64,000 nucleotides of DNA from an uncultured bacterium (GTDB lineage: Bacteria > Planctomycetota > UBA1135 > GCA-002686595). Location of the stretch: positions 576,001-640,000 of the forward strand of contig CALSNU010000002.1 in assembly GCA_943787795.1 (NCBI GenBank). Direction: 5' to 3'. Positions 42,001 through 45,000 of this stretch are shown piece after piece. Each line of letters begins with the position of its first letter. Position 1 is the first letter of the stretch. Position numbers: made by a program.

Positions 42001-45000
42001 GGAGGTCCCGAGCACCGCTCCTGCTCCAATGACGGCGATGACATTGAGGTATCGGTTGATCACGATCCCGTGATCGCCGACGGTGGAGTTCCACACTAAC
42101 CCGAAGTGAGTGAAGGTCGCCTCGAGGTCCAACGGGTGGCGAATCTGAATTAGGTACGCGGCCTGATCATGCAGGTCAAGACCGATACGGGCGGAGAGCG
42201 CGAGGATTGACGCGTACAGAGCGAGGCACGCAAGGAGAGTCGCAGTTGGTGCCAGCAACTCCAGCTTCTTCTTCACGGGGGTGTTCATCGGTGGACTCAC
42301 TCTACCGCGAGCCCAACCTGTGGGGCACCGAGGCTAGCGTTGTGTCTGGATCCGAGGCTACACGGCGCCCGGTGATCGCTGCTTCGTCCGCCAAGACTCG
42401 CGTGATCTGGGTCGGGGACATCGTGTTCCCCGTGACGGTCTCGACGAGTGGGCGTTCACACTAGCTGGCTGGAGACCGACGAACCCTGCGGTCGATCTGA
42501 GTGGCGGCGTCTGGGCTTACAGGCTGGAGATACCCATCGTCCTCGCTTGGTTCGACCGCTTCGATGACTTGCTCGTCTGGCGCTTCCACCATCTTCGATA
42601 GGGGCACGCTGAATCAGAGGGTTGAGTCTTAGTGACCCGAGCGTGGGCTCGCATGTCACTCAGCTTGCCAGCCGAAGAGCCCGCCGTGCTTGGCCGCCCT
42701 GTGGCAGCGGATGCAGCTCTCCATCGCCCCCGCTCCTGTGACACGGCCGGCGGGGTCCACGGTGCCGAAGGCCCAGCCGTCCATCGTGTCGGGGGTGCCC
42801 TCGGGCAGGCGGAGCATGACGAAGAGGCCGCGAGAGGCGCCGGTCCGGTAGGTGAGCCCGTCGCGCTCGGCGAAGGGGATGTAGCCGTGGCTTGCGGCCA
42901 GCTCCCAGCCCGGGGTCGAGTGGGGGGAGGGCGCGTCCTCTCCCGCGTGGAGCACGGGGGTGAAGGCCTCCTTTATGAGCACGGTGAAGAGCGGGAGCTC
43001 CACCTCCTCCTCGGTGCCCAGCTTCATGTAAGGCCCGCCTTGGTTCGAGCGGAGCGCGTAGATCTTTGATCCGTGGCCGTCCTCGGCTTCCACCGTGGAG
43101 TGCAGCGCCCGGGCGGCCGGGGGCATCATGCAGAGGAACGGCGACCAGTTGAGGTGGGGCCCCACCACCGGTAACTCCGGGACCGAGCCCGCCGCGGCGC
43201 GGATCATCGCCTCGATGGCGCCGCTGGCACGCGCGGGCACGACCTCGTGCGCGCTGCACGCGCAGAGGAGGGCGAGCGCCGCGAGGCCGTGCGAGCGGCG
43301 GCGGGCGGGGCGCACGTCAGGCTCGCTCGAAGAACCAGACGGCGGGCGTGCGCTTCGTCGGAGGATCGAACACGTCGATCTTCTGCTGGAGCTCACTGCG
43401 CGCCTTGCGGGTGGCATCGAGGCGATCCTTGAACTCCCCGTAGACGCGATCGAAGGCGGCTTCCCTCTCCTCGTCCGTCCTCGCCTTCTCCTCCTCGGCC
43501 TTGAACTCCTTGTTGAAGGCCTTGGAGACCACATCCTCGGCGGCCGAGGCGGCCTCGTGCTCGACGCGCAGTCGGGCGAGCTCTGCGGTCTGAGCGTCGT
43601 CGAGCGTGGGCGCCTCGGCGCGCCAGCGGGAGTAGCCGCCGACGATCAGGTCCAGGTCCCCGTCCTTGTCCCAGTCCGCGACCTCGGGATAGAGCCCCTC
43701 GACGGGCCCTGTGGGCGACGTGGGGAGCTCCTCGCCGCGGACCTGGAGCAGGGTGCGGGGCGCCGCGAAGCTCGGGGCTCCGCGCGTTCCCTTGTTGATG
43801 AGCAGGTAGACGCCGGCGATGCCGTCGGACCCGCCGAAGGTCCCGTAGACGAGATCCAGGTCGCCGTCGGCGTCCCAGTCCACGAGGCGTGGCGCGGTCA
43901 TCTTGGCCTTGTCCTCGAGGGGGACTCCACCGGCCATCACGCGCACGTTCTTGCCCGTGAAGCGAGGTTCCGACGGGGACCCCTCGTTCATCTGGACGTA
44001 GAGATGGCCCTCCTCATAGCTCCCCTGGATGAGATCCATGTCTCCATCGCCGTCCCAGTCCATGGCGACGGCGGAGATGCCCCGGAGGTTCCTGGGCTTC
44101 CCGTCGGGCATGGAGCGCCCGGTCGTGAGGTGTTGGTGGATGTCGAAGTCGTAGTAGTACGACACGAGCACGGACTCACCGGCGCCATCGAGCAGGCGCT
44201 CAGGCTCCGCGAAGCCCGCCTCGCTCCCCCAGCTCACGTGGGGCGAGCCGTCGAAGGTGGCGGAGAGGTAGTCCAGCTGCCCGTCGGCGTTGAGGTCCAC
44301 GAACTGTGAACCCATGCCGATGCATCACCAGTTGTTGAAGCTCAGCTGCTTCCCGTCGGTGCGCTCCATCGGCTTCTCTGGTCCCATCCCGTCCGCCGTG
44401 CGCCGCGACCAGGTCACGCGCCCGCTCAACCCGCCGAGGACCAGGTCCTGGATCCCGTCCCCGTCCACGTCGAAAGCGGCGGGCGAGGGATACATCTTCT
44501 TGTGGCCCATCTCGGCATCGCCGGCCATGAACTGGACGGGCGCCTTGAAGAGGATGAGTCCGTCGTCGGCATCCCCGGAGGGCGCCAGGGCCGCGAGGGC
44601 CAGGAGGATGTGAGTCATGTTGAATCAGGTGGTGCGCGGGAAGATGAGGCGGGTCGACGGCTGCTCCATGGCTACCGACAATCTCCGTGGAGGTTGCCAG
44701 CAAGACCGGGGATTTGTTGGAGGAGAAAGCCACTGCGCGGCCCTCTGGGTCATGCGGAGGGGCCGCGACCGCGCCAGGGCCAGGGAGCCCAGGCTGACTC
44801 GCTGGTGCGTGGGGGCGACACGTGACCTCGCTTGGATCAAGTCGCCTTGACTGCCGGCAGCTCCTCGAGCGGACCTAGGAGATCTTCTCGAGCACCCTCA
44901 GCGAGGACTCGATGACCCGGTCCTGGTGTGGCTCCAGCCCGAGCCACATCGGTAGGCGTACGAGGCGGCCTGCGAGCTCCTCGGTCGTGGCGATCTCCCC

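Follow-up and report, generated by a model that had tools for sequence, protein, structure and literature searches.

The window analysed here, a 64,000-nucleotide stretch of planctomycete DNA, contains a gene whose sequence places it in a widespread yet uncatalogued selenoprotein family of planctomycetes. The gene lies at 43317..44618 on the minus strand and comprises 433 codons followed by a TGA stop. Its product, which is probably exported and is modelled as a five-bladed FG-GAP/VCBS propeller, would carry selenocysteine (Sec) at position 98 and cysteine at position 99. The evidence set out below makes it very nearly certain that this is a genuine selenoprotein into which Sec is inserted. 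The joint reading, a selenoprotein with a redox-active centre, is the one we prefer, with reasonable rather than high confidence.

The split reading frame and its internal TGA

Under translation table 11 the locus appears as two open reading frames that share a frame of the minus strand, one of 97 aa at 44325..44618 (the stop counted in) and one of 332 aa at 43317..44315. The first-pass annotation held that these are one reading frame joined by an in-frame TGA, and this is confirmed: the two calls merge into 433 codons. With the TGA read as U, they give a 433-residue protein with one internal TGA in the motif SFNNW-U-CIGMGSQFVD, and homologues align across the junction. The TGA itself (codon 98, 44325..44327, minus strand) does not vary in any of the 108 Sec-form loci aligned. 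It is followed by the codon of Cys99 (TGC, 44322..44324, minus strand), the vicinal partner of Sec98. This codon is TGC or TGT in all 40 codon-aligned rows, and Cys99 is at least 90% conserved in alignment A3. The true stop codon (43317..43319, minus strand) is likewise TGA, and a further TGA stands three codons ahead of the ATG of the gene. Genome-wide reassignment of TGA is ruled out, because TGA also terminates the propeller gene and is absent within selA and selB. The host genome encodes selB (327.9 bits, cut-off 242.25), selA (456.6 bits, cut-off 267.9), tRNA-Sec (69 bits, gathering threshold 47) and selD (327.2 bits), the last a gene that has one in-frame TGA of its own. All four are above curated cut-offs. 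Of the 101 family genomes, 98 have selA, among them all 42 of high quality.

Conservation of the TGA at codon 98 is far beyond chance. Matches were found in 52 of the 101 family genomes. By hand count, exactly one TGA occurs in 63 of the 64 places spanning codon 98 (one has an additional TAG), and the lone exception is a tandem paralogue with Ser-Ser at the site. Across the phylum, 95 of 401 genomes have matches; about 86 of 87 spanning places, again counted by hand, contain one TGA, the remaining one being a Cys-Cys form. The conservation reported earlier from a smaller sample thus holds on both larger ones. The U-C motif was seen directly in 29 of 30 loci of one set by pattern (L021-L050; the 30th reads UCIA), in 26 of 27 of a second (L071-L097; the 27th also has NWUC) and in another 45 of 80 loci. 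One subfamily has the motif G-U-C-I-G. The best 120 of 1291 database matches all cover the post-TGA part alone (76-77% of the query), the entries that were fetched start at MG[SL]QF (9/9), and the public annotations examined keep just the C-terminal piece of 332-350 aa. A search for longer relatives with the 97-aa N-terminal piece gave one match, which was uninformative. Since the annotations examined keep the C-terminal piece alone, hundreds of planctomycete genomes would carry a mis-called gene and an unrecognized selenoprotein. Open frames of 900-2200 aa around some homologues are artefacts of high G+C content and not longer proteins, because Pfam matches their C-terminal FG-GAP part alone and the real genes begin at the signal peptide.

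A hairpin of the bacterial SECIS type follows the UGA. The core structure (44294..44312, minus strand) has a 7-bp stem and a 5-nt loop, AGUUC (44305..44301); the hairpin begins 12 nt past the UGA and the loop 19 nt past it. The bacterial SECIS model specifies a loop of 3-9 nt with G in the first two loop positions, an upper stem of 4-16 bp, a distance of 16-37 nt from the UGA and a minimum free energy (MFE) of at most -7.5 kcal/mol (PMC13188914, Fig. 2 legend). Loop, stem and spacing all fall within these bounds, as does the MFE of -8.4 to -10.5 kcal/mol. In the window gene a lower stem, UCGGC/GCCGA, extends the hairpin to 44284..44320 on the minus strand (MFE -18.6 kcal/mol for 39 nt). This lower stem is not kept in many homologues, and its 3' arm becomes GGN in many rows of alignment A4.

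The first-pass annotation had judged this element by a single fold. Covariation among 104 distinct sequences and codon skew now support the hairpin. Its 7-bp helix is 92.4% paired, against 27.6-42.0% with the 3' arm slid, and none of 500 shuffles matched this pairing. Pair 21-29 is AU in 78 sequences, GC in 18, GU in three and another combination in five; these five have a C-U mismatch, which might be avoided by a shifted register that bulges out a U. Pair 20-30 is CG in 101 and UA in three. All 40 rows have T as the third base of codon 103. At codon 104 the rows show CCA, TCA or CCG (14, 13 and 13 rows); in the rest of these genes, 5% of prolines are encoded by CCA and 3% of serines by TCA. 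Val107 is encoded by GTG in 27 of 27 rows (background 40%). The codons are also coupled: CCA and TCA always occur with GTG, and CCG always with GCG. Base changes in the hairpin are thus compensated, and its synonymous codon use is strongly biased. Because the hairpin falls in the most conserved peptide, the protein accounts for some of its conservation. Folded as a single sequence, the 86 nt surrounding the site do not outperform shuffled versions (z -1.11; 32 of 200 fold equally well). Synonymous-site entropy offers a lone four-fold conserved column in the SECIS region, too few for a test (G101, H 0.76; the minimum among 45 other such columns is H 0.92).

Expression data, which the first-pass annotation had named as a gap, come from RNA libraries produced by a study that also supplied a possible source sample. 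Two contigs span the TGA unchanged, X15 record 7 (44090-44603) and X16 record 11 (43980-44469), with the qualification that RNA libraries can contain DNA. Some parts of the gene are without contig cover in single runs.

Natural Cys-Cys forms, for which no search beyond the family had been made earlier, occur in the phylum. Cys occupies the position of Sec98 in P0131, in P0155, in protein P0272 of genome G436 and at locus L148. The motif is NWCC in P0131 and P0155 (Novipirellula aureliae WP_146601146.1) and IYCC in G436, as also at L148 and in Novipirellula rosea. The Cys forms are contiguous reading frames. In G436, which is 99% complete, selA scores below the cut-off (49.3 bits against 267.9). 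In a FastTree phylogeny of 119 rows (111 Sec, five Cys, three other), the Cys forms are nested among Sec forms and need at least three changes. In some relatives the site is occupied by His, Asn, Trp or Ser-Ser, so the Sec-Cys dyad is dispensable in some copies.

Architecture of the propeller

The read-through protein belongs by sequence to the FG-GAP/VCBS repeat families (PF13517, PF01839). On rescanning, Pfam returned the matches already claimed for it, FG-GAP_3 at 1.3e-19 (70.9 bits, cut-off 26.9) and FG-GAP (22.2 bits, cut-off 22.1), and NCBIfam models again gave no match. A UnbV_ASPIC domain was not found by Pfam, at E <= 1 in this protein or at E <= 0.01 in six relatives. Codons 1-16, MTHILLALAALAPSGD (44571..44618, minus strand), read as a probable N-terminal export signal. 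The AlphaFold2 model has low pLDDT across residues 1-20, and homologues begin with hydrophobic leaders, several of them with a lipobox-like LxxC, so that the selenoprotein is probably exported.

Codons 24-333 (43620..44549, minus strand) form five FG-GAP/VCBS blades, as indicated by Pfam, the AlphaFold2 model and matches to five-bladed folds. Each blade has a DxDxDGxxD loop in its sequence (D50-D58, D108-D116, D187-D195, D247-D255 and D315-D323), and these five loops probably hold calcium. The last blade contains a long inserted helical hairpin (codons 341-417, 43368..43598, minus strand; DSSP of the model gives H341-378 and H382-417). Short paralogues of 343-367 aa (L055, L057 and L059-L061) are without this insert. 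The C-terminal strand, ending in AVWFFER (codons 421-430, 43329..43358, minus strand; E421-430 in the model), has the consensus VWLY(R/E)R in alignment A3 and probably closes the propeller.

The model, which supplies the structure prediction that had been missing, has a pLDDT of 93.6 and a pTM of 0.89. The best whole-fold matches are five-bladed propellers (Z 18.3-13.7, rmsd 3.3-4.6 A, 219-279 residues aligned), with GH62 and GH43 enzymes at the top at Z 18. The nearest solved relatives by sequence profile (E 1e-8 to 4e-4) and Foldseek are CRTAC1, integrin alpha chains and the PVL and AAL2 lectins; Foldseek alignment to seven-bladed FG-GAP proteins gave a TM score of just 0.28-0.38. The model has five blades and not the seven of an integrin-alpha-type propeller. 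The earlier description as an integrin-like FG-GAP/VCBS propeller is therefore right about the repeat family and wrong about the blade number.

A thioredoxin-like fold is found in the majority of bacterial selenoproteins known so far (PMC13188914, section 7). The present fold is a propeller and its motif is a vicinal U-C, not UxxC or CxxU. From the known topology of FG-GAP blades, Sec98-Cys99 would lie one residue ahead of 'FG', in the loop that precedes the inner strand of blade 2. By analogy, the FG-GAP loop bearing the dyad would belong to the upper, ligand-binding face, near the central axis.

The Sec-Cys pair and its possible chemistry

A minority of family members are linked to DsbD_N, a domain of the DsbD system. 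According to PMC3322552, oxidoreductases of the periplasm receive electrons from DsbD. Pfam (cut-off 25 bits) detects DsbD_N at 33-43 bits as an N-terminal fusion in P0155, L048, L049 and L029, where the domain retains both of its cysteines; a custom profile adds fused copies in L122 and L141. At L098 and L148, whose propellers are Cys forms, the gene immediately downstream encodes DsbD_N, and at L028, L107 and L130 the domain lies nearby. In all, about six fused and five nearby cases were seen among roughly 120 distinct members, falling in at least three separate parts of the FastTree phylogeny. The window gene has no DsbD_N beside it. The host genome has a single DsbD_N, fused to another protein on a different contig, and also encodes a DsbD_TM membrane transporter (80.3 bits). 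A predicted complex between the DsbD_N and propeller parts of P0155 scored 0.15 and 0.12 against a mark of 0.34, which weighs neither way. Apart from the DsbD_N cases, no neighbour is conserved beyond the genus (1.5 kb flanks of 29 loci, 3 kb flanks of 46 loci). A downstream CxxCH lipoprotein is common to just three loci, all of the same genus.

The exchange of Sec for Cys, together with fusion or adjacency to DsbD_N in a minority of members, favours a redox function for the site. The following scheme is proposed. (i) UGA-98 would be decoded as Sec by SelA, SelB, SelD and tRNA-Sec, guided by the hairpin with its G-containing loop. (ii) The exported product would fold, probably with calcium, into a five-bladed FG-GAP/VCBS propeller. 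(iii) Sec98-Cys99 would cycle between the selenolate/thiol state and a vicinal selenenylsulfide. (iv) The selenolate would attack an oxidized substrate in the cell envelope, with peroxide, sulfenic acid/disulfide or sulfoxide types as candidates. (v) Cys99 would resolve the intermediate. (vi) A DsbD-type relay, acting through the immunoglobulin-like DsbD_N domain, would re-reduce the pair. That the dyad is a redox-active centre is somewhat better than an even proposition; that DsbD_N supplies its electrons falls a little short of even. The first-pass annotation had read the dyad as a vicinal redox or metal site. An exported Sec propeller carrying the dyad is strongly supported, and catalysis stays a proposal.

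The most serious competitor, to which we give perhaps one chance in four, accepts the selenoprotein but lets Sec-Cys bind a soft metal or metalloid (Hg, Cu(I), Cd, As or Se/S species) for sequestration, sensing or hand-over in the envelope, not turnover. Vicinal CU/UC motifs in the 2026 catalogue are mostly metal-related, as in CopZ-family proteins (GxUC and CU), MerB-like SaoL, HgcA and MbdU (PMC13188914, Table 1), whereas metal-resistance or transport genes are not conserved beside the present gene in the flanks of the same 29 and 46 loci. No second conserved Cys or Sec is present in alignment A3 as a distal redox partner, a point in favour of metal binding. The DsbD_N fusions point instead to thiol-disulfide exchange with the site, although DsbD-like ScsB systems are described as tied to copper stress, so that a DsbD_N link is compatible with metal chemistry. 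The replacement of Sec by Cys in a genome without selA above the cut-off is typical of redox selenoproteins and fits metal sites too.

A calcium-dependent lectin or adhesin is improbable. The vicinal selenenylsulfide would here be structural or ligand-shaping, as vicinal disulfides are in some receptors, without chemistry of its own. The nearest solved relatives are indeed binding proteins, the DxDxDG loops are kept in all five blades, and the dyad is absent altogether from some paralogues. Costly Sec is nevertheless retained in about 150 places across the phylum where Cys would suffice for a structural cross-link, and a permanent one would have no use for a fused reductase-type DsbD_N. Least tenable, and scarcely credible, is that the protein is not a selenoprotein and that the TGA is a real stop (split gene, pseudogene or termination with re-initiation), yielding two polypeptides, or encodes another residue: every public gene caller splits the gene and an ATG lies four codons past the TGA in the window, but that ATG is not kept among homologues (CVGAS, CIGTS, CIGFG, CTSST and others occur instead), the TGA holds a single aligned position phylum-wide with coding conservation on both sides and a covarying SECIS-type hairpin behind it, Cys forms are contiguous, TGA also ends the gene and is absent from selA and selB, and the break falls within a propeller modelled as one folding unit.

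A selenoprotein with a redox-active Sec-Cys centre thus remains the preferred reading. More tentatively, planctomycetes, marine and other, may run an uncatalogued set of extracytoplasmic selenoenzymes. Its flagship would be a calcium-stabilized five-bladed FG-GAP propeller with a vicinal Sec-Cys selenenylsulfide as the catalytic centre at its mouth, recharged through DsbD_N, and a second family, with a member at G000:C6:580997-582637, in which DsbD_N is fused to a domain that has a conserved U-x-C, would draw on the same relay. An exported five-bladed FG-GAP propeller bearing Sec-Cys would widen the range of selenium-using scaffolds. Planctomycete FG-GAP/VCBS proteins are poorly understood, and this propeller offers a concrete way to test what they do; if the proposal is true, it would also provide the first enzyme chemistry for their expansions.

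Relation to known systems

FG-GAP/VCBS propellers such as the integrin alpha head, CRTAC1, ITFG2 and PVL/AAL2 share with the window protein the Pfam FG-GAP_3 and FG-GAP matches and the DxDxDG calcium-loop motifs. The window protein differs in having five blades, not seven, a helical hairpin in the last blade and Sec-Cys ahead of the blade-2 'FG'; neither ASPIC/UnbV nor any other additional domain was found. Five-bladed enzymes (GH62, GH43, GH32/68, GH130 and glutaminyl cyclase) are alike in architecture, with identities of 6-13% and homology not implied, whereas the window protein has FG-GAP-type blades with calcium loops. The active sites of five-bladed propeller enzymes are located at the central funnel.

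Mammalian thioredoxin reductase has a vicinal Cys-Sec centre, GCUG. In both proteins an adjacent Sec and Cys could form an eight-membered selenenylsulfide ring, to be re-reduced by another redox centre. The order in the window protein is U-C, not C-U, and the dyad is internal in a propeller loop and not on a flexible C-terminal tail. The window protein also lacks a flavin domain, is probably exported and has DsbD_N as its proposed donor. The periplasmic substrates described for DsbD and ScsB (DsbC, DsbG, CcmG and TlpA/PprX; PMC3322552) resemble the family in envelope location and DsbD_N association; they are thioredoxin-fold proteins with CxxC, whereas the window family is a beta-propeller with vicinal U-C.

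Literature searches pairing selenoprotein with FG-GAP, or selenocysteine with VCBS, found no relevant paper. Among the matches listed for selenoproteins in planctomycetes, PMC4807772 alone was relevant. Its 2016 supplement names 'FG-GAP/ASPIC' selenoprotein candidates, four genes from two planctomycetes, three of them positive in bSECISearch. As described there (Table S9), in these planctomycete FG-GAP genes, too, a UGA lies in frame and the annotation has split the gene into two neighbouring calls. They differ in having Gly aligned in the closest match and in the ASPIC/UnbV label, a domain not found in the window protein (PMC4807772). The comparison is by description, the candidates being a supplement-only listing given without motif, family analysis or Cys forms (PMC4807772). 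The earlier claim of a new family and a first catalytic-looking centre is too strong in its 'new' and 'first' given these candidates. Its other part is borne out: no FG-GAP/VCBS family is among the 119 selenoprotein families of the 2026 catalogue (PMC13188914). The CU/UC selenoproteins catalogued there (CopZ-family GxUC and CU, SaoL, HgcA, MbdU and KCU-star) share the vicinal dyad and a SECIS element within the coding region, and their folds and families are unrelated to that of the window protein (PMC13188914, Table 1).

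Reading frame and distribution of the in-frame TGA

Two gene calls on the minus strand (table 11), one of 97 aa with its stop included (44325..44618) and one of 332 aa (43317..44315), share a frame. Reading TGA as U merges them into one protein of 433 residues with a single internal TGA at codon 98 (44327..44325), in the context ...GKQLSFNNW-U-CIGMGSQFVDLNADG..., and the single ORF proposed in the first-pass annotation is thus borne out. The gene's own terminator is also TGA and a further TGA lies three codons 5' of its ATG; TGA is therefore not generally reassigned. Pfam detects FG-GAP_3 (1.3e-19, 70.9 bits) and FG-GAP (22.2 bits, marginally above the 22.1 cut-off) in the read-through protein, and NCBIfam models give no match. 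The genome encodes selB (327.9 bits), tRNA-Sec (69 bits), selA (456.6 bits) and selD (327.2 bits), all over curated cut-offs. selD carries one in-frame TGA of its own, so an enzyme of the Sec pathway is itself a selenoprotein here. selA and selD adjoin each other (G000:C5:184589-187201). Among 101 sampled family genomes, 98 have selA; completeness is 67-89% in the remaining three.

Matches to the selenoprotein occur in 52/101 family and 95/401 phylum genomes. By hand count of the listings, places that span codon 98 carry exactly one TGA in 63 of 64 cases for the family and in about 86 of 87 for the phylum, which upholds on larger samples the conservation noted earlier; at one of the family's places a TAG is present as well. 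The family-level exception (G092:C60:173-1042), a tandem paralog, has Ser-Ser where Sec-Cys would stand. This paralog (L060:44-1129, plus strand) lies immediately 5' of a Sec-form gene, reads ...VESASSGGISLDLAD... at the site, and appears to be a copy that lost the dyad. The phylum-level exception (G436:C1:4918938-4920029) has Cys-Cys (...NIYCCVGAQPRFVD). Pattern searches found the U-C motif in 29/30 loci of L021-L050 (L050 reads UCIA) and in 26/27 of L071-L097, where L085 also has NWUC. In another set it was seen in 46 of 80 loci, 45 with U and one (L148) with CC. Subfamilies vary 5' of the dyad (NW-, VPxG-, IY-, TYG-, GVW-); U-C-x-(G/S/A) is constant. Tandem members share a locus at L186 (G449:C4; two GVW-U-C copies) and L107 (one NWUC, one VWUC); at L029 a TTUC copy is followed, with no in-frame stop between, by DsbD_N and an NWUC copy. 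Three contigs with typical members (L107, L116, L173) bear the MAG labels Chitinophaga, Paracoccaceae and Alcaligenaceae. In the tree they fall within planctomycete sequences, and binning error or transfer may be the cause.

In a collection of 5.8 billion proteins, the best 120 of 1291 matches span just 76-77% of the query. Nine fetched from these all start MG(S/L)QF, the first ATG 3' of the TGA; the gene is therefore cut at the same point in relatives down to 46% identity. Public annotation calls such C-terminal pieces 'VCBS repeat-containing' or 'FG-GAP repeat domain-containing' proteins. Six full-length stop-free forms are found among 50% representatives: NWCC (P0131, and P0155, which is WP_146601146.1 of Novipirellula aureliae), NNWHC (P0138), GGWNRS (P0154), LSCCF (P0207) and PNWWS (P0242). 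In G436, the genome with the Cys-Cys form (a single contig, 99% complete), no selA reaches the cut-off (best score 49.3 bits vs 267.9). A FastTree tree with 111 Sec, 5 Cys and 3 other rows (119 in all) places Cys forms among Sec forms and requires at least three changes, whose direction a midpoint root does not give.

Among the matches listed, 20 runs from nine studies hold all or part of the stretch, six of them recorded as RNA; the data are metagenomic and metatranscriptomic, from marine, plankton and estuary samples. Contigs from two RNA libraries cross the TGA (run X15, record 7, 44090-44603; run X16, record 11, 43980-44469), with no alternative letter listed at 44325-44327. A possible source sample belongs to the same study as both runs, and DNA can be present in RNA libraries, so these contigs lend weak support to transcription of an unbroken message across the TGA.

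The SECIS hairpin

A hairpin lies 3' of the UGA in every Sec form; in the window gene its stem is GGUUCAC/GUGGACC and its loop AGUUC. The 7-bp helix is 93.5% paired in 42 sequences. With 108 sequences, of which 104 are distinct, pairing is 92.4%, as against 27.6-42.0% in slid controls, and none of 500 shuffles reaches the observed pairing or covariation score. Pair 21-29 is AU in 78, GC in 18, GU in 3 and other in 5, with a C-U mismatch in five sequences; pair 20-30 is CG in 101 and UA in 3, and pair 19-31 CG in 73 and UG in 31. Because the region also codes for the most conserved peptide, synonymous sites were checked. Codon 103 ends in T in 40/40 rows. Codon 104 is CCA (14), TCA (13) or CCG (13); elsewhere in the same genes CCA encodes 5% of prolines and TCA 3% of serines. 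Val107 is GTG in 27/27 cases (elsewhere GTG 40%, GTC 51%) and Ala107 GCG in 13/13. The two codons are coupled, CCA or TCA invariably with GTG and CCG invariably with GCG, and Asp108 is GAC in 40/40 rows. This constraint on synonymous codons is selection at the RNA level.

The hairpin fits the bacterial SECIS constraints set out in the legend to Fig. 2 of PMC13188914: a 5-nt loop with G at its second position followed by U, a 7-bp upper stem and 19 nt from UGA to loop. Its MFE is -8.4 kcal/mol (19 nt) to -10.5 kcal/mol (25 nt). The lower stem is not conserved among homologs. The element, previously judged by a single fold, is now backed by covariation and codon bias, though the 86-nt single-sequence fold at the site is no better than shuffles (z -1.11).

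Propeller fold and the Sec98-Cys99 dyad

There is no solved structure for the family. An AlphaFold2 model (46-row alignment; pLDDT 93.6, pTM 0.89) predicts five blades of four strands each (residues ~24-333), then a helical hairpin (341-417), not found in short paralogs, and a last strand with conserved VW(L/F)(Y/F)(E/R)R (421-430). Whole-fold search of 48,161 chains ranks five-bladed propellers top: GH62 (Z 18.3, rmsd 3.7 A over 274 residues), then GH43, GH130, GH32/68 and glutaminyl cyclase, at 6-13% identity. Foldseek and sequence profiles match the FG-GAP proteins CRTAC1, integrin alpha, ITFG2 and PVL, with TM of 0.28-0.38 and E-values at repeat level only. The blades are thus of FG-GAP/VCBS type and the architecture five-bladed, and the protein is modelled as a five-bladed propeller of such blades. 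The earlier description as an integrin-like FG-GAP/VCBS propeller stands for the blades; their number and the low TM to FG-GAP structures set it apart from integrins.

As read from the sequence, each blade has one DxDxDGxxD loop (D50-58, D108-116, D187-195, D247-255, D315-323); loops of the DxDxDG type bind calcium in integrins. The sequence opens with a short hydrophobic leader, a probable export signal, and homologs carry clear signal peptides, several with a lipobox-like LxxC. Residues 94-104 form the loop that joins blade 1 to the inner strand (E105-107) of blade 2, and the dyad lies in it. I100-G101 fill the 'FG' position, one residue behind Sec98-Cys99. From known FG-GAP topology, this loop would be part of the upper face, close to the axis. 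U98 and C99 are the only conserved cysteine-type residues of the protein.

DsbD_N associations, proposed function and relation to known selenoproteins

Apart from DsbD_N (PF11412), the single recurrent association of the family, no neighbouring gene is conserved beyond the genus. DsbD_N is fused N-terminally in P0155 (35.5 bits), L049 (33.0), L048 (42.9; L119 is a repeat of it) and L029 (41.8), against a cut-off of 25 bits and with both cysteines retained. A profile built from these four domains reveals further fusions in L122 and L141. DsbD_N is the next gene 3' of the Cys forms L098 (G436) and L148 (Novipirellula rosea), lies in frame downstream at L130, and is on the opposite strand at L028 and L107. 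Fused L048, L049, L122, L141 and P0155 group together in the tree, with L029 and the IYCC pair elsewhere; these scattered positions therefore imply at least three separate associations, within a minority of members only.

DsbD sends electrons to envelope oxidoreductases, and DsbD_N is its periplasmic donor domain (PMC3322552). The first-pass annotation left a vicinal redox or metal site. The DsbD_N links favour the former: Sec98-Cys99 would form a redox-active selenenylsulfide, re-reduced through a DsbD-type relay. Binding of a soft metal by the dyad is a serious rival, since the catalogued CU/UC selenoproteins are largely metal-related (PMC13188914).

The window's genome has one DsbD_TM transporter and one DsbD_N domain, the latter fused to a different protein. 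This is a putative second selenoprotein (G000:C6:580997-582637, plus strand; L099:1414-3054) with a signal peptide, DsbD_N (27.5 bits in one scan, 24.3 in another; cut-off 25) and ~400 aa of unassigned domain. An in-frame TGA follows DsbD_N in ...SGYI-U-ICMNHQGHG..., then ~300 coding-looking residues. It matches in 10/61 family genomes, with at least one TGA in 11 of the 13 places listed; those in G006 and G045 adjoin FG-GAP selenoprotein genes. The pairing of DsbD_N with Sec centres may thus be more general in these bacteria.

The gene directly 3' of the window gene (42656-43276, minus strand) probably encodes a lipoprotein; the product has a C-terminal CxxCH (CIRCH) and a weak cytochrome P460 match (18.8 bits, under the cut-off of 27). 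Only the three loci of this genus have it next to the selenoprotein. Upstream on the same strand (44875-47076), a DegT/DnrJ/EryC1 aminotransferase (3e-87) and a family-2 glycosyltransferase (7.2e-28) form a sugar-modification pair, not conserved next to homologs. A 473-aa ORF (48099-49520, plus strand) with HTTM (5.5e-62) and vitamin K-dependent gamma-carboxylase lumenal (8.3e-29) domains is a bacterial relative of the vertebrate carboxylase.

The selenoprotein family to which the protein belongs is real and widespread, has an unusual scaffold and is missing from the catalogue. Table 1 of the 2026 review (PMC13188914), with 119 families, has no FG-GAP/VCBS entry, as had been reported, and its text does not mention FG-GAP, VCBS, Planctomyc-, propeller, integrin or ASPIC. 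Full-text literature yields no relevant paper pairing selenoprotein with FG-GAP and none pairing selenocysteine with VCBS. The claim of novelty holds for the catalogue and is tempered by a precedent, the planctomycete FG-GAP/ASPIC candidates in the supplement of a 2016 paper (PMC4807772). By their description those candidates may belong to the present family, but they bear an ASPIC label, and no UnbV_ASPIC domain was found in the window's protein or in six relatives scanned. As described there, Gly is the residue aligned in their closest match, and a SECIS is predicted in three of four.
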